NCBI RefSeq assembly: GCF_965261555.1
Contig: NZ_OZ253465.1
Location: forward strand, 2,547,977-2,611,976
Direction of reading: 5' to 3'
Source: Candidatus Palauibacter sp.
GTDB lineage: Bacteria; Gemmatimonadota; Gemmatimonadetes; Palauibacterales; Palauibacteraceae
Length of the DNA stretch: 64,000 bases
Shown here: one piece after another, positions 6,291 through 56,541 of the stretch
Position numbering within the stretch: the stretch's first letter is position 1
Layout of the letters: every line of letters begins with the position of its first letter
Notes under the pieces: model-generated
Database searches by the model: none
Told to the model about the DNA's origin: nothing
The model's input: only the letters and a program-made list of their open reading frames with translations
Translations under genes and position numbers: made by a program

Positions 6291-7145
6291 ATGAAGATCG
6301 CGCTTGTTCAACAGTCCGCGGGACCCGACCGCACGCGTAACCTCGAACGCGCGCTCGACGCGATGGGGCGCGCCGCGTCGGAGGGCGCCGATCTCGTGGC
6401 GTTCCCCGAACTCGCGATCGACCGCTTCTTCCCCCAGCGGCCGGACGATCCCGGCGCCGCGGCGCTCGCGGAACCGATCCCCGGTCCCACCTGCGATCGA
6501 ATCGCAGCGCGCGCCGCCGAACTCGGGCTCGTCACGGTGTTCAACCAGTACGAACTCGGGCTCGACGGGCGGTGCTACGACAGCACGCCGGTCTTCGACG
6601 CGGACGGCTCGCTGCTCGGCGTGACGCGGATGATGCACATCACCGAGTACGCGTGCTTCCACGAACAGCAGTACTACGCGAAGGGCGACACCGACGCGCT
6701 CGTCTACGACACCGCCGTGGGACGCGTGGGGGTCGCGATCTGCTACGACCGCCACTATCCCGAGTACATGCGGCGCCTGGGAGAACGGGGCGCGCAGCTC
6801 GTCGTCATCCCGCAGGCCGGCGCGGTCGGTGAGTGGCCCGAGGGGCTCTTCGAGGCCGAGTTGCGGGTGGCGGCCTTTCAGAACGGCTACTTCGCGGCGC
6901 TGGCCAACCGCGTCGGCGCGGAGCCCCGCCTCACCTTCGCCGGAGAGTCCTTCGTCGTCGATCCTGAGGGCGTCGTCCTCGCCCGGGCGCCGGAAGGAGA
7001 AGAGACGATTCTCTACGCCGACATGGACCTCTCGCGGTGCGCGGCCTCCACCGCCCGTCGGCTGTTCTGGCGCGATCGCCGCCCCGACGTGTACGCGCGC
7101 TGGGGCGAGCGCCTCGCCACGGCGTCGTCCGTGCCCGGCCGCTGA
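6291..7145 (+). CDS. carbon-nitrogen hydrolase (nitrilase superfamily)
   Basis: MKIALVQQ... with the AFPEL (Glu), ICYDRHYPE (Cys-containing) and VVIPQAG blocks. The listed ORF 5415..7145 carries a false 5' extension antisense to the SRAP gene; ATG at 6291 was verified in sequence. Confidence 0.8.
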   Translation: MKIALVQQSAGPDRTRNLERALDAMGRAASEGADLVAFPELAIDRFFPQRPDDPGAAALAEPIPGPTCDRIAARAAELGLVTVFNQYELGLDGRCYDSTPVFDADGSLLGVTRMMHITEYACFHEQQYYAKGDTDALVYDTAVGRVGVAICYDRHYPEYMRRLGERGAQLVVIPQAGAVGEWPEGLFEAELRVAAFQNGYFAALANRVGAEPRLTFAGESFVVDPEGVVLARAPEGEETILYADMDLSRCAASTARRLFWRDRRPDVYARWGERLATASSVPGR

Positions 7146-7177
7146 CTCCGACCGTCCGCCGCCGCCGACTCCCGCTC

Positions 7178-8050
7178 GTGGAACTCCTCATCGTCGTGGT
7201 CGCCCTCGTCGGTCTGATGGCCGTCGTCCGTCTCCTCATGCCGCGGATCGTCCCTTACTTCGTCTTCTATCCGGAAACGCTGCAGCCGCACGAGACGCAC
7301 CCGCGATACTGGGGGTTCCCGCGAGCCACCGAAGTCCGCATCCCGACCGAAGACGGCGTGGAGCTGCACGCGTGGTGGTTTCCCGCGAACCCGCCGGAAT
7401 CCAGGAGCGGGACCGCGATCTACTTCCACGGCAACGCGGGGCACCTGGGAGATCGCGGAGCCGTGGCGGCGGCGCTCTCGAACCTCGGACTCGACGTCCT
7501 CCTGCCCGACTATCGAGGCTACGGAGCGAGCGAGGGGAAGCCCTCGGAGGAGGGTCTCTACGCGGACGCGAGAGGGGCCTACCGGTGGCTGGTGGACGAG
7601 CGGGGCGTCGATCCCGGGCGGCTCCTCCCCCTTGGGAACTCCCTCGGAAGCTCCGTGGCGGCGGAACTGGCGGTGAGTCGCCCGGTGGCGGGCGTCGTCC
7701 TCCTCGGGCCATTCACGGATACCGTGGCCATCGCCCGGCACCGCCTGTCGTGGCTCCCCGACTGGTATCTCGACTGGCTGCACAACCGCTTCGACACGCT
7801 GGACCGCGCGCCGCGGATCGAGGTGCCGACCTTCGTCGCCGCCGGCGAGGAGGACCAGGTCATTCCGCCCGGCCAGAGCCGGGAGGTTTTCGAGGCGCTA
7901 CGGGGACCGCGCCAGTGGCTCGAGATCCCGGGGGCGGGGCACAACGACATCTTCTCGCACGAAGTGCTGTGGCGGGAACTCCACCGCTTCACCCGCAACG
8001 TCCTGGACAGCGGCGCCGCGGACCTCCCCCGGGGAGATCAAAGGGGCTGA
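7178..8050 (+). CDS. alpha/beta hydrolase (serine aminopeptidase S33-like), N-terminal membrane anchor
   Basis: GTG 7178 in frame (VELLIVVVALVGLMAVV TM helix), followed by HGNAGH, GNSLGSS (nucleophile elbow) and GAGHNDIF. Confidence 0.7.
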   Translation: MELLIVVVALVGLMAVVRLLMPRIVPYFVFYPETLQPHETHPRYWGFPRATEVRIPTEDGVELHAWWFPANPPESRSGTAIYFHGNAGHLGDRGAVAAALSNLGLDVLLPDYRGYGASEGKPSEEGLYADARGAYRWLVDERGVDPGRLLPLGNSLGSSVAAELAVSRPVAGVVLLGPFTDTVAIARHRLSWLPDWYLDWLHNRFDTLDRAPRIEVPTFVAAGEEDQVIPPGQSREVFEALRGPRQWLEIPGAGHNDIFSHEVLWRELHRFTRNVLDSGAADLPRGDQRG

Positions 8051-8062
8051 CGGCCGGCCGGT

Positions 8063-8473
8063 CTATCGAGGTCGAAAAATCGTGGCCCCCGCCGTCTCGC
8101 CCGCCCGGCGAAGCCGACGGTCGAGCGATGCCAGCGGCAACGAACGCCGAAGGGCAGTCTCCACGTAGGCGGCGTCGTAGGCTGAAAGTCCGTGCCTCGC
8201 CGCCAGGTGAAGGATCGCTCCATCGCTGTGGTCATCATCGACCAGGATCCGCATTCCCTTCAGATCCGCGAGCGTGGCCGAAGCATCGGCTGCGGTCATG
8301 CGTCCCCTGCGCCGATTGACCGCGAGACCGTTCAGGACTTCGTACCACCAGATCCGCGGGACGATGGCGAAGTGCTCCAGCGTCAGTCGCACCGCCAACT
8401 CCGCCAACGGATCATCTTCATCCGCAAGACACCAGGAAAGTGCAACCGATGCATCGATCACGAGCGACATCAA
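8063..8473 (-). CDS. vapC: PIN-domain toxin VapC
   Basis: 136 aa with the MMSLVIDASVALSW...DAAYVETA PIN pattern. Overlaps the upstream antitoxin gene by 4 nt. Confidence 0.8.
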   Translation of the reverse strand: MMSLVIDASVALSWCLADEDDPLAELAVRLTLEHFAIVPRIWWYEVLNGLAVNRRRGRMTAADASATLADLKGMRILVDDDHSDGAILHLAARHGLSAYDAAYVETALRRSLPLASLDRRLRRAGETAGATIFRPR

Positions 8474-8718
8474 TACCTGTGCCCCTCGTGGATCGTTTCG
8501 ATGATTTCGGAGATTGACACGCGCTGCGGCAGGCGCTTCCGGCGTTCGCGGATGCGGCGGGCCGCCGCGTAGGCACGAGTGCGATCGTCCTCGTCTACGG
8601 GGACGAGCCGGGCGACCGGACGGCCGTGGCGGGTGATCGTGAGGCTCTCGCCGTCGGCCACACGGTCCAGAAGCCGCGGCAGGTGGGTCTTGGCTTCGTA
8701 CGCTCCGATGCGATCCAT
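8470..8718 (-). CDS. Phd/YefM-family antitoxin
   Basis: MDRIGAYEAKTHLPRLLDRVADGESLTITRHGRPVARLVPV is classic Phd/YefM. The listed ORF start (8811) is trimmed to MDRIG. Confidence 0.7.
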   Translation of the reverse strand: MDRIGAYEAKTHLPRLLDRVADGESLTITRHGRPVARLVPVDEDDRTRAYAAARRIRERRKRLPQRVSISEIIETIHEGHRY

Positions 8719-8807
8719 TACACTCTCACAGGTTAGACCAGACGATACGACCAGTCTGATTCTACGTGATGGTCGGCCTGGCGGGAAGTAGCGGGGCTGG
8801 TCCCGTG

Positions 8808-9500
8808 TCACACCGGAGCGAGGAGCCAGGCCGCGGCGGCGGCCAGATCGGACGCCACATGCACCGGAGCGGCGTCGTCGGGGCGGGGTTCAGCCTTGCG
8901 GTTGACCCACAGCACGGGGATCCCGAGCGAAGTGGCGGGGACGACGTCGTGGAAGAGGCTCTGCGCCACGTGCAGCCAGCGGTCGAAGCCTGCGGCCCAC
9001 TCCCGCCCGCGCTCGAAGTGCGGGGCGGCCGGCTTGTAGCTCCGCAGCCTCTGCGCCGTGCCGAGGAGGCCGAACTCGACGTCGAAGTGCTTCAGCGTCC
9101 CGGCGAGCAGGTCGTCGTCGATGTTCGACAGGATACCGAGTGTAACCCCGCCGTCCGCGAGGCGTGAGAGCGCCGGGTTCGTGTCCGGGAACGGCTGCCA
9201 GGAAGGGATGCTCGCGGGGATTCCGGCCGCAAGTTCCTCCGACGTATCCCAGCCGTTCGCGCGCGCGACCTCCATCGCGGTCTCGGTGAGCAACTGCCGG
9301 TAGGGGCGGTACTCGCTCGTCTTGAGCCGGTTCTGGGCCGCATGGAATTTACCCAGGAGCAACTCATCGTCCACGGCGGCCGCTTCCGCGTACGCGGCCC
9401 GGAGCGCCGCGAGAATCCCGCCCTCCCAGTCGATCAGCGTGCCGTAACAATCGAACGTGAGGAGGGTGCCCGGGCCCGCCGTACCTTCGAAACTGTGCAT
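8808..9500 (-). CDS. HAD-superfamily hydrolase (haloacid dehalogenase type II-like)
   Basis: LTFDCYGTLIDWE (motif I DxYGTL), later SNIDDDLL and SYKPAAPHFE. Confidence 0.75.
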   Translation of the reverse strand: MHSFEGTAGPGTLLTFDCYGTLIDWEGGILAALRAAYAEAAAVDDELLLGKFHAAQNRLKTSEYRPYRQLLTETAMEVARANGWDTSEELAAGIPASIPSWQPFPDTNPALSRLADGGVTLGILSNIDDDLLAGTLKHFDVEFGLLGTAQRLRSYKPAAPHFERGREWAAGFDRWLHVAQSLFHDVVPATSLGIPVLWVNRKAEPRPDDAAPVHVASDLAAAAAWLLAPV

Positions 9501-14218: not shown

Positions 14219-15367
14219 CTACGATTTCGGGATGTCCTTGCCGGGATCCACGAAGGGGCGGGGCACGACCGTGGCGTCGCGTTCACCGTCCGGCGTCGTC
14301 ACGCTCAGCCGCGTGCCCATCTCTCCGGAGGCCGCCGGCACCAGGGCGTAGCCGATGTTCCGCCCGAGACGGGGCGAGTGGACGGCGGAAGTCACGAAGC
14401 CGATCTCCTCTCCGTCCCGGCTCACCGGCCAGCGGTCCATGTTCAGGTCGAGCGGGGCGCCCGAGATCTCGATTCCGGCGAGGAGTCGCCGGGGGCCCTC
14501 CTCGGCGATCCGGGCCAGCGCTTCGCGGCCGATGAAGTCGCCCTCCTGGTCGAAGTCGACCTGCCAGCCGAGCCCGACTTCGTACGGGTTCGTGTCCAGC
14601 GTCATGTCGATGCCGTAGTTGAGGATGCCGGCTTCGATGCGGCGGATGTCCGAGGGACCCGTGGGCGAGATGCCCAGGTCGCGTCCCGCCTCCATCACGC
14701 GGTCCCAGAGTTCGACGCCCCGGCTTCCGTCCCTGAGGTAGATCTCGTAGCCGACCTCGCCGCTCCACCCGGTGCGGGTCACGACCACCGGGATGCCGTC
14801 CAGATCCGCCTCCAGGAACCAGTAGTAGCGGAGGTCGAGGACCTCCTCCCCGAAGAGCCGCCGCACGACCTCCTTCGACTTCGGGCCCTGCACCTGCATC
14901 GGCGAGACATCCGGCTCGCAGATCTCGACATCGAGGCCGGCGTTGAGCGCGATCCCCTTCGCGTAGAGCAGCACGTCGCTGTCCGCGAGCGCGAGCCAGA
15001 AGTGGTTCTCACCGAGGCGCAGCAGCACGGGATCGTTCACGATGCCGCCGTCCTCGGCGCCGATGAGGACGTATTTCCCCTGCCCGACCGCGCACTTCGA
15101 CAGGTCCCGGGGCGTGAGCAGGTTCGTGAACTCGAAGGCGTCCGGCCCCGTGATCTCCACCTGCCGCTCGACGCTCACGTCCCACACCGTGACGCCGGTC
15201 AGGAGCTTCTCGTACTCCGCGTGCAGATCGTCGTAGCGGGTCGGGAGGAACATGTGGTTGTAGACCGTATAGCTCCGGCACCCGTCCCGGAGGGTGGCCT
15301 CGAAGTATGGGGAGCGGCGAAGCCGCGCCCCGCGCTGGATCAAGGCCATGTCGAAGGTCTGGGTCAT
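14219..15367 (-). CDS. GcvT-family aminomethyltransferase-like protein (folate-dependent demethylase family)
   Basis: 382 aa with ...VWDVSVERQVEITGPDAFEFTNLL... and GYEIYL blocks, as in glycine-cleavage T protein, DmdA and sarcosine-oxidase-type domains. Confidence 0.75.
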   Translation of the reverse strand: MTQTFDMALIQRGARLRRSPYFEATLRDGCRSYTVYNHMFLPTRYDDLHAEYEKLLTGVTVWDVSVERQVEITGPDAFEFTNLLTPRDLSKCAVGQGKYVLIGAEDGGIVNDPVLLRLGENHFWLALADSDVLLYAKGIALNAGLDVEICEPDVSPMQVQGPKSKEVVRRLFGEEVLDLRYYWFLEADLDGIPVVVTRTGWSGEVGYEIYLRDGSRGVELWDRVMEAGRDLGISPTGPSDIRRIEAGILNYGIDMTLDTNPYEVGLGWQVDFDQEGDFIGREALARIAEEGPRRLLAGIEISGAPLDLNMDRWPVSRDGEEIGFVTSAVHSPRLGRNIGYALVPAASGEMGTRLSVTTPDGERDATVVPRPFVDPGKDIPKS

Positions 15368-15537: not shown

Positions 15538-16842
15538 TCAGGTGGGGATGCCGTGCTTCACGGCGCGCGTCATCGCGTCCACGAAGCGGTCGAGTTCCTC
15601 GAGGGTCGTGTAGGTGGACGGCGAGATCCGCAGGCCCGTGAACTCGGCGTGGTTGATGCCGACGGTGAAGATCCGGTGCTTGTTCCACAGCCAGTTGCGG
15701 AGCGCGCTCGTGTCGATCCCCCCCACCTGGACGTTCGCGATCCCGCATGCGAAGCCGGGCTTGAGGCTCGTGTTGAGCCGCACCCGGTCGTGTTCCAGGA
15801 GCTGCTCGGCCCAGTAGTTCCGGAGGTGGACGAGCCGCGCCTCCTTGCGCTCGCCGCCGACCAGCTGGTGGAAGGTGAGCGCCTCACCGATCGCGAGGAA
15901 GTTGGCCTCCGGGTGCGTGCCGATCGCCTCGAACTTCCGGATGTCGTCGTTGCTGCTCTCGGGCGCCGCCTGCAGCGGCCAGATCTCGGGGATCTTCTCC
16001 TTCCTCACGTAGAGGAGGCCCGTGCCGACGGGGGCGTGCAGCCACTTGTGGAGGCTCACCGCGTAGTTGTCGCAGTTGAGCTCGGAGAGGGTAAAGTCAT
16101 GGTGCGCCATCGAATGTGCTCCATCGACGATAACCGGGATGTCGTAGCCGCGCGCCATCTCCACGACCTCGCGCACGGGGAGGATCTGCCCGGTGATGTT
16201 GATCATGTGGCACATGAGAATGAGGCGCGTGCGGTCGGTGATCTGCTCCTCGAACAGCCGTACGATCTCCGCCGGGTCCTCGGCCGGGATCGGGATCTTG
16301 AACTGCTTCATCACGATCCCCTCGCGGCGCTCGCGCTGCTGGAAGGTCGTGATCATGCGCCCGTAGTCCTGCGTCGTCGTCACGACTTCGTCGCCGCGCT
16401 GGAGGTCGTAGCCGTTCTGCAGGATCTGAAGACCCTCGGACGCGTTGCGCGTGATCGCGACCTCCTCGGGGTCCACGTCCCACTGCCGGGCGAGGCGCGC
16501 GCGGACGCCCTCCCGCTGCGGCTCCAGGATCTGCCACCCGTTGTAGACCGGGATCTGGTTCGCGAAGTCGAGGTCCCGCTTCATCGCCTCGAGGACGTGG
16601 GCGGGCGTCGGGCTCACGCCGCCGTTGTTGAGGTTGACGAGGGAGCGGTCGGTCGTGAATGCCTTCTGGATCTCGAGCCAGAACTCCTCGTCGCGCGCGA
16701 TCTCCCCGGGGGAGCCGGGCGTGCGCGACGCCTCCCGGGCCGCGGCGATGGCGGTGTTCCACTTCGTCGGAACCATTGTCATGGCTCCGGCGGCTGCGGC
16801 GGAGCCCCCGAGGCGGGCGAGGAATCGTCGGCGGGTCGGCAT
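15538..16842 (-). CDS. class V aminotransferase-fold PLP enzyme with twin-arginine (Tat) signal
   Basis: N-terminus MPTRRRFLARLGGSAAAAGA (Tat motif). PLP lysine block SLHKWLHAPVGTG. Isopenicillin-N-epimerase/cysteine-desulfurase-like fold. Confidence 0.75.
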   Translation of the reverse strand: MPTRRRFLARLGGSAAAAGAMTMVPTKWNTAIAAAREASRTPGSPGEIARDEEFWLEIQKAFTTDRSLVNLNNGGVSPTPAHVLEAMKRDLDFANQIPVYNGWQILEPQREGVRARLARQWDVDPEEVAITRNASEGLQILQNGYDLQRGDEVVTTTQDYGRMITTFQQRERREGIVMKQFKIPIPAEDPAEIVRLFEEQITDRTRLILMCHMINITGQILPVREVVEMARGYDIPVIVDGAHSMAHHDFTLSELNCDNYAVSLHKWLHAPVGTGLLYVRKEKIPEIWPLQAAPESSNDDIRKFEAIGTHPEANFLAIGEALTFHQLVGGERKEARLVHLRNYWAEQLLEHDRVRLNTSLKPGFACGIANVQVGGIDTSALRNWLWNKHRIFTVGINHAEFTGLRISPSTYTTLEELDRFVDAMTRAVKHGIPT

Positions 16843-16967: not shown

Positions 16968-17522
16968 TCAGTCCTGTGTCGTGATCATGGCCAGGATCGG
17001 GTCGATCGCCTCCTCGGCCAGTTGTTCGAGTTCGACGGCGGTACGGTTCTGGATAGGGTGCGGGACCCACACGATGCCGGGTTCGAACCCCAGCGAGCGC
17101 GACTGGCTGCGGGCGGCCGCCTCGAACTCCGTCGTGACGACGAAACAGCCGGGGATTCCGCGTTCGTCCAGGTCTCTGAGGTCGTGCAGACCGCACGACG
17201 TGCAGGACCCTCAATCGGCCAGTGCCTGCACGACGACATCGGCCTCCGTGGCGATCCTCTGCAGGATTTCGACGGGCGCCCGCCGCGCGTTGGTCGGCTT
17301 GTCCGTGCGGATCGTCTCGATGCCGAGTGCGTCCAGTCGCGCCTTCACATGGTCGAGGAACTCGTCGCTGCGCAGCTTGCCGATTCCCTGGAGCGCGACA
17401 ACTCGCCCCTCCAGCGACGGCGGAGGCGTGCGCCGGGGCCGCATCTCCGGAGCGAGTTCGGAGGTGGGATCGTGGAGGACAGTGGCCGGCGTTGCCGGGC
17501 TCGCCGCGGTCGAAACGGTCAT
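16968..17522 (-). CDS. UGSC/UxxCxxC-motif selenoprotein (in-frame UGA at 17211..17213 read as selenocysteine)
   Basis: Frame verified base by base. The gene is MTVSTAAS...EADVVVQALAD-[TGA]-GSCTSCGLHDLRDLDERGIPGCFVVTTEFEAAAR...PILAMITTQD-[TGA at 16968]. The ATG (17520..17522) overlaps the stop of the upstream gene (ATGA). The post-UGA half has no Met and is absent from the ORF track. Confidence 0.7.
17181..17199 (-). promoter_or_regulatory. SECIS-like hairpin 11 nt downstream of the UGA
   Basis: The mRNA reads UGA GGGUCCUGCAC GUCGUGC-GGUCU-GCACGAC. This is a perfect 7-bp stem with a 5-nt GGUCU loop starting at nt 12 after UGA, the same spacing as the E. coli fdhF SECIS minihelix. Confidence 0.6.
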
Positions 17523-18970
17523 GTCTCGATCTCTCTCGTGATGGGGTGTGAGTGCTGCCAGGCGCGGCCGCCGGGCCAGCCGGCCAGGATCGCGGAGTAC
17601 AGTCCGGCCGCGCCGCCGGCCCGGGCGAGGAGCAGTCCGCCGGGCGGAAACTTGGGCACGTGGCGGCGCGTCTCCGAGTCCGGCACGCCCTCCGCGAGGC
17701 CGCCGGCGCCGCGGGCCACCTCGCCCAGCGGCCGCGTCGTCGCTTCGATCAGCGCCTCGGTGATGCGCGCCCGGCCCCAGCCCGCCTCCCGGTAGACGGC
17801 GTAGTGCTCCGGCGAGAGGAGGAGCACGGCGTGCGCCCACTCGCAGATCTTCGGGTGGCAGACGGCGAGCAGGCACGCCGCGAGCGACGCTGTGAGTTCC
17901 TCGGGGGTGCGCGAGGCCTGGTCCATGATCCCCTGCACGCCCTCGCCCTGGAACAGCGTGACGGCATCGGTCCCCCGCGGAACGCCGCGTGAGACGGAAA
18001 GCGGCTCCCAATCCTCGTCCGACTCGTCCTCGGCGAAGCAGAAGGTGTACTTGCTGGGCGCGCCGAAGGTGGAACGGTCGATCTCGCCGGGGCGCCCGCC
18101 GCCCACGTTTTGCACGATGAGGTTGAGGGCGCGCCCGATGGTCGCGTTCGCCCGGTTCCCCTGTCCGAGGACGTTGAGCCTCGAGTTCATCCCGATCCGG
18201 CGCGCAATGGGGCCGTTGACGATGATGAGGGGGGCGGTGAAGCAGGTGCTGCACAGGATCCCGTGCAGCGTGAAGTCCGGATCGAGCGCCGCCTCCAGCG
18301 CCGCCAGCAGCACGGGCATGTACTCCGGCTTGCAGCCCGCGAGCACGGCGTTGATCGCCACCTTCTCCACCGTGCATTCCGCATAGTCGGGCGGCACGGC
18401 CCCCACGATCTCGCCAGGAGCCTGGGACGTGCCCGCGAGCATCCGCAGGATCCGCTCCGGGGTCGGCGGGACGACCGGAAGCCCATCCGTCCAGCCGCGA
18501 TCGAAGCATGCCTCCACGTCGTCCGCGTGCGGCTCCAGCGCCACCCGTCGCGCCTCCAGGCCCGTGTCCCCGAAGCGCGCGCGCAGGCGCTCGGCGGCGC
18601 CCGGTGCTACCGACAGGGAACCGCAGCCGGGGCGGAACGCGGCCAGATCCTCCCCCAGGTCGGGGGTCGACGTCAACCGGCGCCACTCGTCGCGGTTCCA
18701 GCCGACGGCGCGCCCCGTCTCCCGTCCGTCCTCGAAGCGCACCAGCGTCGGGACCGTCTCGATGTCGAGGCGGAAAGAGTGTTCGAGTTCCGTGTCGTCG
18801 ATCACGCCAGGGACGGCGGCGGGAAAATCCGGATCGTCCTGGCTGAAGACCGTAAGACCGCAGCCGTCAGCGGACAGCCGTTTCAGCACGGGTTCGACGA
18901 GTTGGCAGGTGGGGCAGTCCCGCTTCACGACGACCGCGAGACCGTCCTCGGGTAACGGAGCGCGTTCCAT
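17519..18970 (-). CDS. hypothetical protein with N-terminal thioredoxin-fold domain (CPTC motif)
   Basis: 483 aa. N-terminal ~110 aa is thioredoxin-like (VVVKRDCPTCQLVEPVLKRL). The remainder is unrecognised but carries several Cys pairs (PGCGS, CSTCF, CHPKIC). Confidence 0.65.
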   Translation of the reverse strand: MERAPLPEDGLAVVVKRDCPTCQLVEPVLKRLSADGCGLTVFSQDDPDFPAAVPGVIDDTELEHSFRLDIETVPTLVRFEDGRETGRAVGWNRDEWRRLTSTPDLGEDLAAFRPGCGSLSVAPGAAERLRARFGDTGLEARRVALEPHADDVEACFDRGWTDGLPVVPPTPERILRMLAGTSQAPGEIVGAVPPDYAECTVEKVAINAVLAGCKPEYMPVLLAALEAALDPDFTLHGILCSTCFTAPLIIVNGPIARRIGMNSRLNVLGQGNRANATIGRALNLIVQNVGGGRPGEIDRSTFGAPSKYTFCFAEDESDEDWEPLSVSRGVPRGTDAVTLFQGEGVQGIMDQASRTPEELTASLAACLLAVCHPKICEWAHAVLLLSPEHYAVYREAGWGRARITEALIEATTRPLGEVARGAGGLAEGVPDSETRRHVPKFPPGGLLLARAGGAAGLYSAILAGWPGGRAWQHSHPITREIET

Positions 18971-19136
18971 GTCCCAACCGTAACGCTCGGATCCCGTCCG
19001 TCAAAGCCGCCACCCGCGCCGTTGACCCCCCGCGGGACTGAACGGAGATTTACGACCGCGTGTTATCAAAGGTTGTGAAGGGACGGGCAGGGATGTGTTT
19101 CGCCGTGATGGACCCACTCGGAAGGATGTACCTCTT

Positions 19137-20851
19137 ATGAACCGAACTGCACTCGCGCGCCGGCTGGCGGGCGGGGTAGTCCCGGGGCTGCTCCTCGCAT
19201 CGCTGTCCGGCCTCGCCTCTCCGGCGTCTGCCGCCGCGCAGTACATGCCGAGCCAGAGCCCGGTGCCTCCCCCGTTCTTCGCGCTCCAGAACGCGCGCAT
19301 CGTGACCGGCACGGGCGCCGTCATCGAGGACGGCACCGTCGTCATCGCCAACGGCCTCATCGAAGCCGTAGGGGCCGACGTCGACATCCCCGGTGAGGCG
19401 TGGCTGATCGACGCCAGCGGCCTCACCGTCTATCCCGGCCTCTTCGACGGCCTGTCGCAGGTCGCACTGGGGACACCGGGAGGGGACGGGCCCGCCGGTG
19501 CCGGCGCCGGAGGCAACCCCTTCCTCGCCCTCGCGCAGCAGGCGAACCAGCCGCGCACCGTGGGGCCGGAGGATCGCCCCGCGACGAACTCCTGGTTCAA
19601 CGCCGCGGACATGCTGGACGCCGACGCCGACGCGATCGAGACCTGGCGCAGCGGCGGGTTCACGAACGCGCTCGTGGCGCCCGATGACGGGATCGTGACG
19701 GGGCAGGGCGTCGTGGTGAACCTCGCGGGCAGCGAGCAGGAGATGGTCGTGAAGTCGCCTGCCGCGCTCCGCGTGACGATGAGCGGCGCCGGCGGATTCC
19801 GGAGTTACCCCGGCTCGCTGATGGGCGTGATCGCGTACATCCGGCAGCTCTATCTCGACGCGGACCACGCCGGGCAGTACGAGGCGCGCTATACGGCGAA
19901 CCCGGGCGGTCAGCCGCGTCCGACGTACGATCGCGCGCTCGGCCCGGTGCAGGATGCGATCGCGGGCGGCTGGCCCACGGTGATGCCGGCGAACGAGGTG
20001 CGGCAGATCCGGCGGGCGATCAAGCTCGGGCAGGACACCGGCGCGCGGCCGGTCCTGCAGGGTGCACACGAGGCGTACGGACTGGCCGACGAGATCGCGG
20101 CCGCGGGCGTTCCGGTGCTCGTCAACGTGGACTGGCCCGAGCGGAACCGCGATGCGGATCCGGAGGCCGAGGAGTCGCTCTCGTCGCTGAAGCGCCGCGC
20201 CTACGCGCCGACGACCCCGGCCCGGCTCGAGGAAGCCGGGGCCGAGTGGGCCTTCTACAGCGGCTCGGCGAACAACCCCCGCGCGATGATGGACAAGGTG
20301 CGGACGGCGATCGAGAACGGACTCTCGGAGGAGGCGGCGCTGGAGGCGCTCACTGCCGCGCCCGCCCGCATCTACGGCGTGGACGCGCTCCTCGGCTCCG
20401 TCGAGGTGGGGAAGATCGCGAACCTCGTCGTCACGGACGGCCCGCTGTTCGATGAGGGCACCGATGTTCGGATGGTGTTCGTCGACGGCCACAGGTTCGA
20501 GGAGGAGGCGCCCGAGCCGCGGCCGACGGAGCCCCCGGCGGTCGACATGAACGGCACCTGGCTTCTCTCCCTGAACAACGATTCGCAGGAGGCGACGGCC
20601 GAACTCGAGGTTTCCGAGGACGGCACGATCTCCGGCGTGATCCAGGGCGAGCGCGGCGAGCAGCAGATCACCGACGGCTGGGTGAGCGGCAACGAGTTCA
20701 GCATCACCGCCTCGGCCACGATGGGACCGGGCATGGAAGTCGAGATCGTCTATACCGGCACGGTCGAGGGCGACGCGATCGAGGGGAACGCCTCCTTCGG
20801 CGGCATGCGCAACATGGACTTCACGGGCACGAGGCCCGGAGGAGGTGTCCG

Positions 20852-20855
<4 letters not shown>
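19137..20855 (+). CDS. amidohydrolase-family protein (secreted) with C-terminal extra domain
   Basis: Signal peptide, then an amidohydrolase N-terminal pattern (IVTGTGAVIEDGTVVIANGLIEAVG...IDASGLTVYPGLFD). ATG 19137 verified. Confidence 0.75.
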
Positions 20856-22260
<1,405 letters not shown>

Positions 22261-22264
<4 letters not shown>

Positions 22265-23673
22265 CGCGCGGATCCGGTAACAACCTCGGGAACACCATGA
22301 ACGACAGGATCGGCACCATGCTGAAGTCGATAGTCGCGACGGCGGCCCTCCTCGGGACCGTCGGGTTCGCCCTGCCCGCACACGCCGCCGCACAGGACGG
22401 CGGGACGTTCGCGGTGCGGGGGGCCACGATCCACACGGTGGCCGACGGCGTCATCGAAGGCGGGACGATCGTGCTCAGAGACGGCCGCATCATCGCGGTC
22501 GGAACCGATGTGGATATCCCGGCGGACGCCGAGATCATCGACGGGGAAGGGAAGCACGTCTTTCCCGGCATGATCGATGCCTTCAGCTCGCTCGGGCTCA
22601 CGGAGATCGGGGCCGTGGCGGTGACGAACGACGCGAGCGAACTGGGGCGCTGGAACCCGCATCTCAACGCGCATACGGCGATCCACCCCGCCAGCGAGCA
22701 CATCCCGGTCGCGCGCGCGAACGGGATCACGCACTCGATGGTGGCGCCCGGCGGTGGCGGGCGCGGCTTCGGCGGCGGCGGAGGTTCCGGCATCCAGGGC
22801 CAGGCCACGCTCGTCCATCTCGATGGCTGGACGGTGGAGGAGATGGAGATCGAGAAGACCGCGGCCATGGTCCTCGGCTGGCCCACCCTCACGACGAGTT
22901 TCCGCGCCTTCGCCGGCTTTGGCCGCCCGGCCGGCGGCCGCTCCTTCCGCCAGGCGCAGGAGCGCTTCGACGAGCAGGTGGCGGAGATGGACGAGTGGTT
23001 CGTCGCCGCGCAGCACTACAGGCAGGCGGTGGCGTCCGGTTCGGAGCGCGTGCCGCGCAACATCCAGCTCGAGCACCTGTCGCGCGTCCTCGATCGGGGG
23101 ATGAAGGTCATCGTGCGGGCGAACGGCTGGCGCGAGATCGAGTCGGCGATCGAGTTCGCGGAGAAGTGGAATCTCGACCTCGTCATCGCGGGCGGAAACG
23201 GCGCGCGCGAGATCGCGGGGACGCTGGCCGAGAAGAACATCCCCGTGATCCTGGGACCGGTGCAGCGGGTGCCCCAGGGCGAGGACACCGCGTACGACGA
23301 CCCGAACACGCTGCCCGGCGTGCTGCACGACGCGGGCGTCGAGATCGCGTTCGCGACCTTCAACTCGTCCGATTCGCGGACGCTCCCCTACGAAGCCGCG
23401 AACTCCGTGTCGTGGGGGCTCACGAAGGAGGCGGCGCTGGAGGCGGTGACGCTGGCCCCGGCGCGCGTGCTCGGCGTGGACGACCGGCTGGGGTCGCTGG
23501 AGATCGGGAAGGTGGGGAACCTGATCGTGACCGACGGCGATCCGCTCGAGATCACTACGCAAATCGAGTGGGTGTTCATCAAGGGCGTGCCGTCGGACCT
23601 GGACAACAAGCACCGCAGCCTGTGGGAGAAGTACAACAACCGCCCCGCGCGGCGGGTGACGACGACGACCTGA
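22261..23673 (+). CDS. amidohydrolase-family protein (secreted)
   Basis: Paralog of the two preceding genes (VRGATIHTVADG...IIAVGTDVDIPADAEIIDGEGKHVFPGMIDA). Start overlaps the previous stop (ATGA). Confidence 0.8.
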
Positions 23674-24693: not shown

Positions 24694-26290
24694 GCCGGCG
24701 ACGCCCTCACGGGCGGTCGAGCACCGGCTCCATCCGCTCTCCATCGGCTTCTCGCTCGGAAGCCAGCTCCGTCGAGCGATCTTCCCCCTGATCGTCGGGG
24801 GCGCGTCGGCCAACTTCCTCGGCGTCGTGGAGATGCGTTCCGTTCTCCTCATCGGACTCATCCCGTTCGTCGTCGGGTCCGTCGTTCGCTACCTGACGTT
24901 CCGGTACCGGTACGAGGAGGCGGAACTCGTGATCCGGAGCGGACTCCTGTTTCGGCGCGAGAGGCACGTCCCCTACGCCCGGATCCAGAATCTCGACGCG
25001 GTGCAGGGCGTCTTCCATCGCGTGCTCGGCGTCGTGGAGGTCAAGCTCCAGACGGGCGGGGGACAGGAACCGGAGGCGACGCTGACGGTGCTGCCGCTGC
25101 CGGCCCTGGAGGCGTTGCGGCAGCGCGTCCGCGAGGGAAAGCGGGAGGCGGCCGAGGAGGGGACGGCGGCGGCGGAGGCGACGGCTGCGGACGCGGCGGC
25201 GACGGCCATGCCCGCCGAGCCGCCGGCGGACCCCGCCCTGGCCGGTTCGGAGGAGGGTCGCACGCTGCTGCATCTTCCCGCGCGCGAACTCCTGCTCCAC
25301 GGCCTGCTCCAGAACCGGGGCATGGTGCTGATCGCGGCCGCCTTCGGCCTTGCGTGGGAGTTGGGGCTCTTCGAGCGGGCGTCCGACTGGATCGCCGGGG
25401 AGCAGTCGTGGATCGGGCCCGCGGTCGAGGGCGCGGCTTCAGACGTGGTGGCGGCCGGCATCCTGGTGACCGTCGTCGCCATTACGGCGCTGGTCGTCGC
25501 CTTCGTGATCTTCGCGCGGATGCTCTCCGTCGCCTGGACGCTCGTCCGCCTCCACGACTACCGCGTCGTGCGGTCCGAGGAGGGGCTGCGCGCGACATTC
25601 GGCATGCTGACGCAGGTCGCCGCCACCATCCCGCTGCGCCGCGTTCAGACCGTGACGATCCACGAGGGACCGCTCCAGCGCTGGGCGGGCCGGGTCGCGG
25701 TCGGCGTGCAGACGGCCGGAGGAAGCCAGGCCGGACAGTCGGGGAACGCGGACCCCCACCGGCACCGACTCGCGCCGATCCTGCGGCGGGACCGTCTGCG
25801 CGAGTTCCTCCGGGAGGTGATCCCCGAGCTGGACGTCCCCGAGGTCGGCTGGGAGCCCGTGTCCCCGCTCGCGTTCCGGCGCGTCGTGAGGGGAACCTGC
25901 TTCCTCGCCACCCTCGCGTCGGTTCCGCTCTACTTCACCCTCGGCGCCTGGGGCGTGGCCTTCCACGCGGCCTTTCTGGCCTGGGCCGTGTTCTACGCGC
26001 GGCGCTACGTCGAGTGCCTCGGGTGGGCGCTGAAGGACGACATGGTCTGGTTCCGGAGCGGCTGGCTGTGGCGCCGCACGACGATCGCACGCTACACCCG
26101 CATCCAGGTCGTGGCGCTCCGGACGACGCCGATCGACCGCTGGCGGGGCATGGCCCGGCTTCTGGTGGACACGGCGGGCGCGGGGGCCGCCGCCCACAAG
26201 GTGGACATCCCCTACCTGCCCCTGGACACGGCTCGGGAACTGAGGACGCACCTCGCCGCCGAAGCCGCCCGCACCGCCTTCCGCTGGTAG
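24683..26290 (+). CDS. YdbT-like membrane protein with three bPH_2 repeats
   Basis: Repeated blocks (VRYLTFRYRYEEAELVIRSGLLFRRERHVPYARIQNLD...; ...ARYTRIQVVALRTTPIDRWRGMARLLVDTAG). ATG 24683 overlaps the YdbS stop; the listed ORF 24389..26290 has a 5' extension in frame. Confidence 0.7.
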   Translation: MPSEPATPSRAVEHRLHPLSIGFSLGSQLRRAIFPLIVGGASANFLGVVEMRSVLLIGLIPFVVGSVVRYLTFRYRYEEAELVIRSGLLFRRERHVPYARIQNLDAVQGVFHRVLGVVEVKLQTGGGQEPEATLTVLPLPALEALRQRVREGKREAAEEGTAAAEATAADAAATAMPAEPPADPALAGSEEGRTLLHLPARELLLHGLLQNRGMVLIAAAFGLAWELGLFERASDWIAGEQSWIGPAVEGAASDVVAAGILVTVVAITALVVAFVIFARMLSVAWTLVRLHDYRVVRSEEGLRATFGMLTQVAATIPLRRVQTVTIHEGPLQRWAGRVAVGVQTAGGSQAGQSGNADPHRHRLAPILRRDRLREFLREVIPELDVPEVGWEPVSPLAFRRVVRGTCFLATLASVPLYFTLGAWGVAFHAAFLAWAVFYARRYVECLGWALKDDMVWFRSGWLWRRTTIARYTRIQVVALRTTPIDRWRGMARLLVDTAGAGAAAHKVDIPYLPLDTARELRTHLAAEAARTAFRW

Positions 26291-26309
26291 AGGGCCGGCG
26301 CCGCCGCGG

Positions 26310-28535
26310 TCAGCGAGTGTCGTCGGTTTCCCGGAGCGCCTCCACGCGCCAGGAGAACTCCTCGTCGAGCTTCGACGTGTTGCCGCGCTTGACGAACTGC
26401 ACGTAGCCCTGCGGGTCCACGAACCAGGTCGTGGGCCAAGCCGCGACGCCGGCCCGCTGCACGTAGCCATCGTCCATGAGTACCTCGAAGTCGAACTCGT
26501 TGCGCGCAAGGTATTCGTCGACGATCTGGCGCGAGTTGTCGTTGCTGATCGACACCACGCGCACTTCGGGGTCGTCCCGGTAGCGGAGGTCGAACTTCTG
26601 GTATTCGGGCATCTCGACGATGCAGGGACCGCACCAGGTGCCCCAGAAGTGCACCACCGCGATCTTGCCGTCGAGGTCCGCCGAGTCGACCAGCGACCCA
26701 TCGATCCGCGCCAACCGGAACGGTTCGTACGTCCCCGCAGCCTCGACGCGTGACTCCAGGATCCGCTCGCGCCGGCGAATCTGATCGCGCTCGTCCAGCG
26801 TGTCGAGGTATTCTTCCATCCCCTCGCGACTACCGTAGCGGCGCTCATAGAGCGCTTCGATTGCGGCCTGACTGGGGTTCTCACCCACCTGCGTACTCCC
26901 GAGGCCAGCGATGTACGAGTCCTCCGCACGGTCCAGCCACTCGACCGCACGAACCTCATCTCCGTCGGCCTCCGCCTCGTCCGCGAAGCGTTCGTAGACC
27001 TGCCCGAGGTGGTATCGGGTTTCTCGATTGGCCTCCGTGAGCGCCAGCGCGCGTTCGAGCGCGTGACGCCCGTCCTCGACCCGGCCCGCCTTGAAGTAGC
27101 CCCACCCCATGGCGTCGTAGACGATGCTCAGGTAGTAGCGCAGGCTCTGCTCGCGCTCCCCTTCGGTCTTGAAGAGGGTCCCGAAGTTCTGGACTCGGTC
27201 GACGGCCGCCTCGAGACCTCGGTCCCTCGCGAACTCGGCCGCCTCGGAGGCATACGGGGTGGACTCGGCCATGGCGACCAGCGCGTCTCCGTACGTGATG
27301 TGGGGGTTCAGCTCGTCGTACCGGACAAGTCCACGAACGGCCGCCGCCAATTCCTCGGCGGGCGGCGGATCCATTTGACTGAGTGCGAAGTAGAGGCGCA
27401 GGTACGCGCTGGCCAACTGTCGATCCGAGTACCGCGGGCGTTCAAGGAAGCGGTTCACGGCGTCGCGCACGACCTCGAGTTGCGCCCGGAACTCGGGTGA
27501 GTCGCGGCCTTTCGCCTGGTAGAGACGGTTGAGTTCGCTGCTCTCGGCATTGTATTCCCGTGCGTAAATCAGCGACGCGTGGCGACTGAGGGGAGCGCGC
27601 TCGACGACCAGAGCCTCGAGTTCCTCGGCCCGATCCGTATCCCCCATATCCCTGTACATGCTTGCGACGGCTGAGAATCCGCGGATGGACTCGGGCCCCG
27701 CCTCCGTGAACTCGGCGATGCTGGCCTCGACGGCCGGAGGGCGCTCGTCGGCGGGGAGAACGTCCGATTCGAACAGGATCCACCAGTGCCACTGCCGGAC
27801 GTCGACCGATCCGGGCGCGAGCGCCACGGCCCGCTCGATCAGCGGCAGCGCCTCTTCCGGCCGGTTGGCGCGGAAGAGGTCTTCGGCCGCCCGGAGGTGT
27901 CCATTAACGTGATCCGGGAACCGCTCCCGCAGTTCCGCGTATGTGGCGAGGCTCGAGTCGGCCCATGCGGGGTCGCTCAGCTCGTACTGCGCCTGAGATT
28001 CCAGCTGGGCGCGCGCCATGAGGAGTTCCGGCGTCGCCCGGGTAGCCGAATCCAGCGCAGCAAGGAAGGAGCGGGCCCCCTCGACGCCGTCGAGGCGGAG
28101 CGATTGGAGATGGGCGGCCGCGAACTCGGGACGGGGCGACGTCTCCCACGCTCTCAGACTGGGCTCGAGCGCGAGGTCCCATTCGTTCTCCGCGAAGTAC
28201 GAAAGCGCCTGCGCATAGTGTCCCCACGGGTTGTCCGGGTCACCGGCAAGGATGGCGTCCGCCTGCTCGCGGGTTTCCTTGAACAACCACCAGGCCGCGA
28301 GTTGTTCCGCGTAGAGAGCCCGGAGTTCGGCGTCGTCGGGGGCGCGTGCGACCCATTCCTCGCCTAACAACCGGCCGGCCTCGAAGGTGCGGAGGCGCAC
28401 ATGATCCCGAAGTTCGGCCTTCGCCGCCTCAAGTTCCTCGGCCGTGTAGTCGGGCGGCGTGCCGCAGCTCGCGAGGGCAGCGCACGCGAGGAGGAGTCCG
28501 ACCCGTAGGACGGGGGGAGTGGAGCGAGACGGCAT
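26310..28535 (-). CDS. TPR-repeat protein fused to TlpA-like thiol-disulfide oxidoreductase (copy 1)
   Basis: Lipoprotein signal (LLLACAALASCG), long TPR-like region, C-terminal thioredoxin fold (VVHFWGTWCGPCIVEMPEYQKFD). Start ATG 28535 verified; the listed ORF extends falsely to 28913. Confidence 0.75.
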   Translation of the reverse strand: MPSRSTPPVLRVGLLLACAALASCGTPPDYTAEELEAAKAELRDHVRLRTFEAGRLLGEEWVARAPDDAELRALYAEQLAAWWLFKETREQADAILAGDPDNPWGHYAQALSYFAENEWDLALEPSLRAWETSPRPEFAAAHLQSLRLDGVEGARSFLAALDSATRATPELLMARAQLESQAQYELSDPAWADSSLATYAELRERFPDHVNGHLRAAEDLFRANRPEEALPLIERAVALAPGSVDVRQWHWWILFESDVLPADERPPAVEASIAEFTEAGPESIRGFSAVASMYRDMGDTDRAEELEALVVERAPLSRHASLIYAREYNAESSELNRLYQAKGRDSPEFRAQLEVVRDAVNRFLERPRYSDRQLASAYLRLYFALSQMDPPPAEELAAAVRGLVRYDELNPHITYGDALVAMAESTPYASEAAEFARDRGLEAAVDRVQNFGTLFKTEGEREQSLRYYLSIVYDAMGWGYFKAGRVEDGRHALERALALTEANRETRYHLGQVYERFADEAEADGDEVRAVEWLDRAEDSYIAGLGSTQVGENPSQAAIEALYERRYGSREGMEEYLDTLDERDQIRRRERILESRVEAAGTYEPFRLARIDGSLVDSADLDGKIAVVHFWGTWCGPCIVEMPEYQKFDLRYRDDPEVRVVSISNDNSRQIVDEYLARNEFDFEVLMDDGYVQRAGVAAWPTTWFVDPQGYVQFVKRGNTSKLDEEFSWRVEALRETDDTR

Positions 28536-28582
28536 GGTGTACCTCCCTGCGGCGTGCGTCCTCGTCGTTTGGCGCGTCCCGG

Positions 28583-37291: not shown

Positions 37292-37404
37292 ACGGCCTCT
37301 TCGCCAACGTTCCCCCCGGCGCCGGCGGCCCCCGCTGGCAGCCGGCCGCATTACAGCTTGCCATCCCCCCTCGCGAGGTGCATCATCATCTGACGGTTCT
37401 AGTT

Positions 37405-37423
37405 GAGAATGATTCTCATTATC
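37405..37423. promoter_or_regulatory. Fur box (iron box)
   Basis: GAGAATGATTCTCATTATC matches the 19-bp consensus GATAATGATAATCATTATC at 16/19 positions. It lies in a locally AT-rich patch about 22 nt upstream of the CbiX-like gene start. A TTGACA hexamer follows at 37428..37433. Confidence 0.7.
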
Positions 37424-37444
37424 ATTATTGACAAGGTTGAGCCG

Positions 37445-38470
37445 ATGTTGAACGGATCACGGGTGCGCGCGCTGTTCGCCGCCCTTGGATTGCTCTGGAC
37501 GTTGAGCGGGTGTGCCTCCGCAGGGGGACCGCAGCCCGCCGTCGAACTCACCTCCCGCCTGGACCAGCCGGGACTTGCGCCGGAATCTGGACCCCGTCCC
37601 GGGATCCTCGTCATGGCGCACGGGGGTGGGGCGGAGTGGAACGGGCGGGTCGAGGACGCCCTGCGGCCGCTGCGCGACCGGATCCCCGTGTCGCTGGCGC
37701 TGGGGATGGCCGATCCCGGGACGATGCAGTCCGCCCTGGACTCGCTCGCGGAAGAGGGCGTGAACACGGTGGCCGTCGTGAGGCTGTTCGTGTCGGGAGC
37801 GTCGTTCCTGCATCCGACGGAGTTCCTGCTCGGCCTCCGTCCCGACGCCCCGGAGCGCGCGATGGTGGGGCACCGAATGGTGAGCGGGACGGAACTCGAT
37901 CCCCTCGCGAACGGCAGCCGGATCCTGCTGGTGCGGGAGGGACTGGGAGGGTCCGGCCAGGCGGCTCGCATCCTGGTCGACCGGGCCGCGACCGCCGGCA
38001 GACCCCCCGCCGAGAGCGGCGTGCTCCTCCTCGCGCACGGCATGGGGGATGATGGCGAGGACCGACGGGTGCTCGGCTCCATGGAGGATGCGGCCGAGGC
38101 CCTGCGGACCGGCGGCTACGCCGAAGTCCACGTCGGCACGCTCAGGGAAGACTGGGCCGGCGCACGGGAGGAGGCGGAGGAGCGGATCAAGGCGCTGGTC
38201 GCCGGCATGGGCGAACGTCACCGGCACGTCCTCGTGATCCCGTACCGCGTGTCCGGTTTCGGCCCCTACGCCGACGTGCTCGAAGGTCTCGAATACGTCG
38301 CCACCGAAGGATTCCTGCCCCATCCCCTGATCACCGATTGGATCGCGGAAAGGGCGACGGCGCGTTTCTGCGCCACCGGTATCGTCTCACCGCTCGGATC
38401 CTGTTCCGCCTCCGCGGGTGGGCGCGCGCCGTCGCGCCCCTGCGGACAGCCTCGAAACCTCGCCCGCTAA
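37445..38470 (+). CDS. CbiX-type (class II) chelatase-fold lipoprotein, duplicated CbiX domain
   Basis: Lipobox LLWTLSGCAS. Two halves each with the CbiX signature (ILVMAHGGGAEWN...; VLLLAHGMGDDGEDRRV...). The listed ORF start 37403 is the Fur box translated. Confidence 0.6.
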   Translation: MLNGSRVRALFAALGLLWTLSGCASAGGPQPAVELTSRLDQPGLAPESGPRPGILVMAHGGGAEWNGRVEDALRPLRDRIPVSLALGMADPGTMQSALDSLAEEGVNTVAVVRLFVSGASFLHPTEFLLGLRPDAPERAMVGHRMVSGTELDPLANGSRILLVREGLGGSGQAARILVDRAATAGRPPAESGVLLLAHGMGDDGEDRRVLGSMEDAAEALRTGGYAEVHVGTLREDWAGAREEAEERIKALVAGMGERHRHVLVIPYRVSGFGPYADVLEGLEYVATEGFLPHPLITDWIAERATARFCATGIVSPLGSCSASAGGRAPSRPCGQPRNLAR

Positions 38471-38494
38471 CTCTCGACACGGAGACCCGATTAC

Positions 38495-48771: not shown

Positions 48772-48812
48772 CGATGCCGCGGCCCGGGGGTTCTGACGGA
48801 AGATCGGAAGAC

Positions 48813-49544: not shown

Positions 49545-49696
49545 CGATGTCCGGACTCGCGGTGCCGGCCTCCGATAGCCGAGGGCCGGATGTTTGCATG
49601 GCGGACGGGTTGGCCGCACCGTAGCGTCCGCACAACCGCAAGATGACGTCCGGCGCTCGATGTGCCGGCGATTTCCCGTGAAGAGCGCTCGGATAC

Positions 49697-56525: not shown

Positions 56526-56541
56526 GAGGCTCCCGGCCCGC

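Follow-up and report, generated by a model that had tools for sequence, protein, structure and literature searches.

A UGSC-family gene of Candidatus Palauibacter interrupted by an in-frame UGA, its predicted decoding as selenocysteine and its thioredoxin-fold partner

On contig NZ_OZ253465.1 of Candidatus Palauibacter sp. (Gemmatimonadota), a reading frame on the minus strand starts with ATG at 17522-17520, runs through 103 sense codons to ...VVVQALAD and meets a TGA at 17213-17211. Past this TGA, the same frame reads GSCTSCGLHDLRDLDERGIPG... (GSCTSCGLHD...) until a second TGA at 16970-16968. All positions refer to the stretch of 64,000 nucleotides (nt) that was analysed as a whole, which is called the window here. 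The question raised by this locus is whether the first TGA ends a short gene or is decoded as selenocysteine (Sec) within a longer one. The original prediction, which was made from the letters alone, favored the second answer, and re-reading the sequence bears out its frame from ATG 17522 through the TGA to 16968; only its count of 79 codons after the UGA must be corrected, to 80 sense codons. The conceptual product has 184 amino acids (aa), that is, 103 aa, Sec104 and 80 aa. The proposed selenocysteine U104 (17211..17213, minus strand) lies in the motif D-U-G-S-C-T-S-C, and the UxxCxxC motif that had been predicted at the UGA is present in the translation as the redox-type motif U104-G-S-C107-T-S-C110. 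Judged from its sequence, we consider 16968..17522 of the minus strand to be a real Sec-encoding gene of the UGSC family that gene callers have cut in half at the UGA. The whole explanation defended below joins the Sec-decoded gene, a selenocysteine insertion sequence (SECIS) of the fdhF type, coupling to a 483-aa partner gene directly upstream and a two-subunit selenol/thiol oxidoreductase that these two genes would encode, and we assign it a probability of roughly 0.9.

The first step is to determine whether the DNA behind the TGA is translated in the frame of the DNA before it. The original prediction held that the second half contains no methionine and cannot be an independent open reading frame (ORF). 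The first part of this claim fails, because one Met is found seven residues from the end (...ILAMITTQD). The second part stands, since the lone Met lies so near the end and an in-frame GTG start would yield at most ~34 aa. The window has a GC content of 69.5%, and coding frames can be recognised by the GC content of third codon positions (GC3). The TGA at 17211-17213 is the sole in-frame TGA in the 64-kb window with a coding-type GC3 on both sides (0.87 and 0.85). Selection was measured on a codon alignment around the TGA that comprised the window and 17 Gemmatimonadota loci (18 in all). The ratio of nonsynonymous to synonymous substitution rates (dN/dS) was 0.13 over the 75 codons after the TGA and 0.094 over the 85 codons before it, whereas the other two frames of the post-TGA DNA gave ~2.1. 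In addition, the variable columns after the TGA fall mostly on third positions (25, 17 and 60 for codon positions 1, 2 and 3), and the TGA at codon 104 is kept in 18/18 of these loci. A reassignment of UGA throughout the genome is excluded because 23 of the 36 predicted window genes, the UGSC gene and its partner among them, end with TGA as their ordinary stop codon.

Homologous proteins provide a second line of evidence. For profile and homologue searches, a Cys was put in place of U in the 184-aa product. This sequence matches Pfam PF24696 (UGSC family) with 111.8 bits against a cutoff of 25, and it matches NCBIfam NF041046 with 115.4 bits (E 2e-33), which is 10 bits short of the curated cutoff of 125; the name of the latter, 'UGSC family (seleno)protein', is the one that the original prediction had given. 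Among 17 aligned members of the same subfamily, namely the window protein and 16 Cys-form relatives, the best E-value against the NF041046/PF24696 family was 3.7e-37. In a search of 5.8 billion proteins, the full-length homologues (171-189 aa, 49-59% identity) were found to carry DCGSCTSC, with a Cys aligned with the window TGA and a C-terminal half that matches the post-TGA translation, including the conserved pattern HD..LD.RGIPG...PHPIQNRT. Homologues of this kind had been anticipated, and 56 distinct sequences with Cys at the TGA position are now at hand; the contrary pattern, in which homologues end at this position and are followed by an unrelated region, was not seen, the downstream half being conserved and under the selection described above. 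The closest homologues (85-94% identity) are all recorded as proteins of 103-109 aa that end in ...ALAD and are therefore cut at the equivalent TGA; the named ones are hypothetical proteins of Gemmatimonadales or Gemmatimonadota metagenome-assembled genomes (MAGs).

The same alternation is found in the DNA. When GTDB species were scanned with one genome each, 80 loci were recovered, and the closest of them (94% identity) belong to Candidatus Palauibacter and other Gemmatimonadota MAGs, many of them sponge-derived. At the aligned codon, 25 distinct 72-nt segments (21 distinct 54-nt sequences) from about 8 lineages have TGA, and 56-57 distinct sequences have TGC or TGT. The TGA form occurs in the Palauibacter clade, two other Gemmatimonadota, two Rhodospirillaceae, Reyranella, a Burkholderiales MAG, an Acidimicrobiia MAG and an alphaproteobacterial MAG. 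The weakest alternative, that the TGA is a genuine stop or a nonsense mutation which leaves a 103-aa fragment and 240 nt of untranslated remnant or spacer, agrees with the public gene calls of close relatives, with the role of UGA as the main stop codon in this genome and with the lack of Sec machinery in the 64-kb window, but it retains almost no probability against a TGA kept in the 18 Gemmatimonadota-clade loci and at least 6 other lineages, a downstream GC3 and dN/dS of the coding type in this frame, and a downstream half that aligns with the C-terminal half of the Cys forms. As far as the alignments can tell, a pseudogene or a true stop at 17211-17213 is incompatible with this pattern of selection.

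A translated UGA requires a signal, and the next step concerns the mRNA immediately downstream. The putative SECIS element occupies 17170..17210 on the minus strand (nt 4-44 counted from the U of the UGA) and consists of an apical hairpin at 17181-17199 that is flanked by a looser lower stem. The 5' arm GUCGUGC (17199-17193), the loop GGUCU (17192-17188) and the 3' arm GCACGAC (17187-17181) form a perfect 7-bp stem that starts exactly 11 nt past the UGA (from nt 15, with the U of the UGA as 1), and the apical loop covers nt 22-26, with G23 and U24. The 7-bp stem, the GGUCU loop and the 11-nt spacing of the original prediction are thus confirmed, and its comparison with bacterial SECIS elements holds in that the register is fdhF-like and the loop contains G23/U24. 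The Escherichia coli fdhF SECIS likewise has its hairpin 11 nt after the UGA and G23 and U24 in the apical loop, and the two elements share an identical 9-mer, GGUCUGCAC, at nt 22-30 from the U of the UGA. They differ in that the window element has a perfect 7-bp upper stem without the bulged U of fdhF and a loop of 5 nt instead of 4. Such a bulge, the determinant for E. coli SelB, is not a feature of every bacterial SECIS element. An Rfam scan of the window at gathering thresholds gave no match. Among the 1,160 TGA triplets on both strands of the window, only that at 17211-17213 is followed 9-13 nt on by a perfect 7-bp Watson-Crick stem that has GU in its loop.

The hairpin is found at the equivalent place in all Sec forms compared, so the loss of it in orthologous loci, which would have spoken against the original prediction, is not observed. 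In an alignment of 16 Sec-form sequences, 88.7% of the cells are paired, compared with 25-40% when the 3' partners are slid, and a compensatory change from G:C to A:U occurs at pair 18-30 (loci L025/L026). The contrast between Sec and Cys forms is sharper. G23/U24 is present in the loop of 21/21 Sec forms and 1/56 Cys forms, and the full 7-bp stem is present in 19/21 and 6/56, respectively; both features together are found in 6 of the 7 Sec lineage representatives and in 0/56 Cys forms (Fisher's exact p = 1e-7). The GC content of the compared segments is 0.59 in both groups alike. The codons of the loop follow this division, in that Sec forms encode Gly-Leu, Ser-Leu or Ser-Ser with GGU or AGU as the first codon whereas Cys forms encode Ser-Thr, and we attribute the use of Gly/Ser-Leu/Ser in place of Ser-Thr to the requirement of the loop for a codon xGU. 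Furthermore, distant Sec forms of ~30% identity (Paracoccus pFER4 and a contig from the Joint Genome Institute, JGI) retain the hairpin with G23U24, and the Paracoccus form (L095) has a compensatory change from C:G to G:C at pair 21-27. On these comparisons, we take the hairpin to be an fdhF-type SECIS element predicted to direct the recoding of the UGA at codon 104.

These comparisons also bear on the possibility that the UGA is read through without Sec, by a near-cognate Trp or Cys tRNA or a suppressor tRNA, with the hairpin merely slowing the ribosome. In general, readthrough can be favored by a stable hairpin behind a stop codon, and the search for Sec machinery, which covered the 64-kb window, found none there. 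However, this hairpin carries the determinants of SelB recognition (G23/U24 and the 11-nt spacing) together with the fdhF 9-mer, which are not found in Cys forms, and the Cys at the aligned site of the homologues completes a classic Sec/Cys pair. Moreover, in two other lineages the module has selA and selB in its vicinity. They lie ~2 kb from the pair of partner gene and Sec-form UGSC gene in Xanthobacter sp. 126 (L092, 1-2792) and 3-6 kb from this pair in the Burkholderiales MAG (L070, 11561-14280). A tblastn search did not find selA/selB in any of the other fetched loci; hence, no Cys-form locus has them in its flanks. According to Slaby et al. (2017; PMC5649159), SelA and SelB are present in most sponge-symbiont bins, and Table S4 of that study gives one SelA and one SelB for each of both sponge Gemmatimonadetes bins. 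Readthrough without Sec is consequently granted very little probability. As a separate observation, the Xanthobacter locus contains a CMD/AhpD-like gene between selA and an aminotransferase gene, and this gene may itself encode a selenoprotein.

The third step concerns the company of the gene. The partner gene (17519..18970, minus strand) encodes 483 aa, with an N-terminal thioredoxin-fold domain (~residues 1-105), a linker modelled with low confidence that contains an invariant PGCGS (C116), and a C-terminal domain of ~330 aa, here called X (~145-483). The redox CxxC of the thioredoxin domain, C19-P-T-C22 (18905..18916, minus strand), is invariant in 33 aligned partner homologues, and in an AlphaFold2 (AF2) model it lies where a strand of the thioredoxin fold passes into a helix. 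The stop codon of the partner and the start codon of UGSC overlap as ATGA (17519..17522, minus strand); related loci of both the Sec and the Cys form show the same 4-nt overlap between their called genes, which suggests that translation of the two genes is coupled. By tblastn, the partner is directly upstream of UGSC in 80/80 loci at 55-96% identity, in Gemmatimonadota, Alpha-, Beta- and Gammaproteobacteria, Bacteroidota, Acidobacteriota and Actinomycetota, and it is more strongly conserved than UGSC. Its homologues form at least 8,000 protein clusters that are named 'thioredoxin family protein' at most. The whole partner has no match in Pfam or NCBIfam at E < 0.001, and its sole NCBIfam match overall is to thioredoxin. 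The X domain gave no convincing match in Pfam, NCBIfam, PDB sequences or PDB structures. The resemblances to class I fumarate hydratase and to Toblerone-fold amide hydrolases returned by Foldseek were rejected as too weak (template modelling score ~0.2, probability 0.4-0.8), and a pyruvoyl self-cleavage site at PGCGS, like that of PrdA/GrdE, was set aside as speculation without sequence or profile support.

The X domain is not confined to this arrangement. A HMMER search of 1.84 billion representatives (50% identity) identified 6,071 X-domain proteins at E <= 0.001, and the best 150 of these comprise 96 with X alone, 37 with thioredoxin and X (Trx-X), 13 UGSC-X fusions and 4 X-UGSC fusions; Pfam verifies the UGSC domain in four of the UGSC/X fusions. 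A standalone X lies beside a Sec-form UGSC gene on the JGI contig (L094) and in Paracoccus ferrooxidans pFER4, and on a plasmid of the haloarchaeon Natrinema an X recorded as 'hypothetical protein' lies beside a Cys form annotated as 'UGSC family (seleno)protein'. X is also duplicated within proteins of ~710-740 aa. The Trx-X forms and the seven single-copy sequences inspected (standalone or fusion) retain two of its cysteines, C213 ('AGC') and C311 ('FCxxE[DN]E'), and a duplicated X protein of 741 aa is without C311. The 2008 Global Ocean Sampling (GOS) paper mentions a 'UGSC/Unknown_1 fusion', and to judge from the fusions described here, Unknown_1 is probably X. To judge from gene order and fusion, UGSC and X are functionally and obligately linked.

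The literature describes UGSC as a stand-alone thiol-disulfide oxidoreductase with a thioredoxin fold, which would act as a general antioxidant and have no dedicated partner. The resemblance of UxxC to CxxC favors this description. To examine the fold, we used P0001, a Cys homologue that is 59% identical to the window protein. Its AF2 model (mean predicted local distance difference test, pLDDT, 90.9) is an alternating beta-alpha structure of the flavodoxin/Rossmann-like kind, in which the Sec/Cys position is at the beta3-alpha3 junction and the next two Cys are in the first turns of helix 3. Therefore, according to the model, the UGSC fold is flavodoxin-like and not thioredoxin-like, and in this subfamily the partner bears the thioredoxin fold that the literature assigned to UGSC. 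With the partner adjacent in every locus of the scan, we judge the stand-alone antioxidant to be very improbable.

The reading that we prefer, a Sec-decoded UGSC protein that acts with its partner, leads to the following mechanism. The UGA at 17211-17213 would be read as Sec when the hairpin 11 nt on presents G23/U24 to SelB. UGSC and the 483-aa partner would form a two-subunit selenol/thiol oxidoreductase, with Sec104 as the nucleophile at the N-terminus of a helix in the flavodoxin-like fold. C107, and possibly C110, would resolve Sec104 into a Se-S bond, which the C19xxC22 of the partner thioredoxin domain would reduce again. The electrons may originate from NAD(P)H and be delivered by a thioredoxin-reductase-like flavoprotein, which is encoded beside the pair in 10 related loci. 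The X domain may bind the substrate, probably a small imported organic acid or amino-acid derivative, and the chemistry may be similar to the reductive cleavage that selenoprotein B performs in the glycine, sarcosine, betaine and proline reductases.

Several results weigh against this explanation. No SelA, SelB or SelD domain was detected among the 27 window genes scanned, and ARAGORN found no tRNA, and hence no tRNA-Sec, in the 64-kb window. The folding energy of the hairpin is not unusual relative to shuffled sequences (z = -0.78; 38/200 shuffles fold equally well), and formal covariation on the 16 Sec-form sequences did not exceed the shuffle controls because 8 of the 16 pairs never vary. 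The Cys forms still make a mean of 5.3 of the 7 stem pairs, given that the S-C...H-D codons force part of the stem; for this reason, it is the contrast between Sec and Cys forms that constitutes the informative test. The NF041046 score is below the curated cutoff. Two UGSC-X fusions, P0279 and P0311, keep the UGSC domain by Pfam score and are without the cysteines of C/U-G-S-C (AEIGGSLFG and GFGWSGVYT), so the UGSC domain is not always redox-active. Finally, Pfam GRDB was not matched by the family, and the similarity to GrdB is marginal.

The function of the pair was approached through its neighbours, which were counted by targeted tblastn over about 95 loci; a clustering of neighbourhoods by longest ORFs was dropped because antisense ORFs in high-GC DNA confound it. 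In the window, a class V aminotransferase / cysteine-desulfurase-like gene (15538..16842, minus strand; PF00266, 134.9 bits) lies 125 nt downstream of UGSC. It has a twin-arginine (Tat) signal (MPTRRRFLARLGG...), and its best NCBIfam matches are PvdN-like and SufS-like, both far below cutoff. The gene accompanies UGSC in 22/22 Gemmatimonadota-clade loci and in Paracoccus (L095) and is a clade-specific neighbour outside the conserved core. It is followed by a gene of the GcvT aminomethyltransferase family (14219..15367, minus strand; PF01571/PF08669), which is closest to the dimethylsulfoniopropionate (DMSP) demethylase DmdA (NF009133, 399.4 bits against a cutoff of 410) and which, downstream of the UGSC cluster, is restricted to 14 loci of the Palauibacter clade. 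From this DmdA-like gene, a metabolism of methylated sulfur compounds or methylated amines may be suspected in these sponge-associated bacteria. Across the loci, a GntR/FCD regulator is near the pair in 30, TctC in 17 and the thioredoxin-reductase-like gene in 10, and some loci have TRAP transporters, a CoA-transferase, or BKACE with a 3-hydroxyacyl-CoA dehydrogenase. These neighbours suggest an inducible catabolic function that acts on an imported small acid or amino-acid derivative.

The best-surviving alternative places the pair in sulfur or selenium trafficking, for example as a persulfide or perselenide carrier or reductase that would be fed by the cysteine-desulfurase-like enzyme and not in the catabolism of an organic substrate. 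The constancy of the class V aminotransferase gene in the Gemmatimonadota clade and its presence in Paracoccus agree with this idea, as do genes for DsrE, TusA, cysteine desulfurase or thioredoxin that lie a few kb from the pair in Paracoccus ferrooxidans pFER4 (L095, 197-2343) and Xanthobacter sp. 126 (L092, 9488-10547). However, TusA/DsrE occur in these two loci only, and tblastn found the set absent from the other ~93. The Palauibacter aminotransferase, with its Tat signal and a best score to the periplasmic PvdN, may be in another compartment, and elsewhere the commonest neighbours are the GntR/FCD regulators and the TctC or TRAP transporters. We therefore regard trafficking as unlikely, and the oxidoreductase of UGSC and its partner, directed at a small organic substrate, remains the reading that we prefer.

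A broader proposal can be formulated from the same material. UGSC and X may constitute a widespread and previously unrecognised two-component reductase, dependent on Sec or Cys, that is distributed over Bacteria and Archaea in three architectures (Trx-X + UGSC, X + UGSC and UGSC-X fusions). In such a system, UGSC might be a miniature, distant relative of the Sec-bearing module found in selenoprotein B of glycine and proline reductase, X a novel domain for substrate binding or catalysis, and the thioredoxin fused to it a built-in reductant. We advance this proposal tentatively and would give it distinctly less than even odds. If it is true, an orphan selenoprotein family that ranks among the most abundant in aquatic metagenomes gains an enzyme context, and a route to the substrate is offered by the GntR/FCD and the TctC/TRAP neighbours.

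In itself, the finding is the detection of a routine annotation failure, since gene callers halt at the Sec codon, and it matters for annotation and not for biology because the UGSC family has long been known. The misannotation is likely to stem in part from a subfamily that scores just below the NCBIfam cutoff. What is added is an obligate partner domain without a Pfam or NCBIfam model that ranges from Gemmatimonadota to haloarchaea, a corrected fold and a SECIS signature specific to Sec forms. Cultivable hosts of Sec forms exist, namely Xanthobacter sp. 126, Paracoccus ferrooxidans/versutus and Reyranella sp. Together, the partner, the fold and the hosts bring a major orphan selenoprotein family within reach of experiments on its function.

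Other parts of the window are recorded here for completeness. Divergent from the partner-UGSC operon, three consecutive genes of the amidohydrolase family (586, 470 and 470 aa; 19095-23673, plus strand) have overlapping stop and start codons and N-terminal signal-like sequences. The minus strand at 28583-30835 encodes a 750-aa protein with tetratricopeptide (TPR) repeats and a C-terminal AhpC/TSA-redoxin (thioredoxin-like) domain. At 35279-41763 (plus strand), a pyrroloquinoline quinone (PQQ)-dependent dehydrogenase (PF01011, 648 bits), two genes without strong matches, a HmuY-like protein and a TonB-dependent receptor may form an uptake or oxidation cluster. Four stretches of 1.1-2.3 kb (7145-9342, 26290-28583, 48771-50194 and 55426-56542) contain no ORF that passes the GC3 filter of the gene map.

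How does the locus compare with known systems? The 'UGSC-containing protein' of Zhang & Gladyshev was first seen in Hyphomonas neptunium and is a major selenoprotein family in the GOS metagenomes; publications on the family go back to 2007-2008, and reviews, including one of 2026, still call its function uncharacterised. The window protein shares with this family a length of ~180 aa, the U/C-G-S-C at the same alignment column, the alternation of Sec and Cys and full-length matches to both profile models. It differs in scoring 10 bits under the NCBIfam cutoff, in belonging to a subfamily whose partner has an extra thioredoxin domain, and in its Gemmatimonadota host, for which the public records are only hypothetical proteins of 103-109 aa. 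It is a single-domain protein of 184 aa, and the annotated family member of Natrinema has 210 aa. We conclude that the window gene is a new, misannotated member of UGSC from Candidatus Palauibacter and not a new kind of element.

The second comparison is with the selenoprotein B group. The original prediction pointed to a UxxCxxC motif in glycine reductase protein B, and this motif is documented for GrdB, GrdF and GrdH (Wagner et al., 1999, as cited in PMC6778437); GrdB/GrdF/GrdH and the D-proline reductase PrdB share with the window protein a UxxCxxC at the selenocysteine (PMC6778437, PMC13188914). The Grd systems also depend on thioredoxin, as the UGSC module is predicted to. In profile searches, the Sec region gave weak matches to GrdB and GrdF in 13 of the 17 aligned family members (best E 1.3e-4), and TIGR01918 and GrdH were matched by five of the 17; the window protein itself scored 15.5 bits against TIGR01917 (cutoff 602) and 14.3 bits against NF040794 (cutoff 800). 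In contrast, UGSC has ~180 aa whereas GrdB has ~430 aa (selenoprotein B range ~240-430 aa), and the window neighbourhood is without GrdA/C/D/E or PrdA genes and instead contains the Trx-X partner, the class V aminotransferase and the GcvT-like gene. The hosts differ as well, with UGSC found in aerobic or facultative Gemmatimonadota and Proteobacteria and Grd in amino-acid-fermenting anaerobes. Mmp7/McrC of the methyl-coenzyme M reductase activation complex (PDB 8s7v) is also named among the closest known systems. From the shared motif and the profile matches, we believe that UGSC is probably a distant relative of the Sec module of selenoprotein B and not a member of that group.

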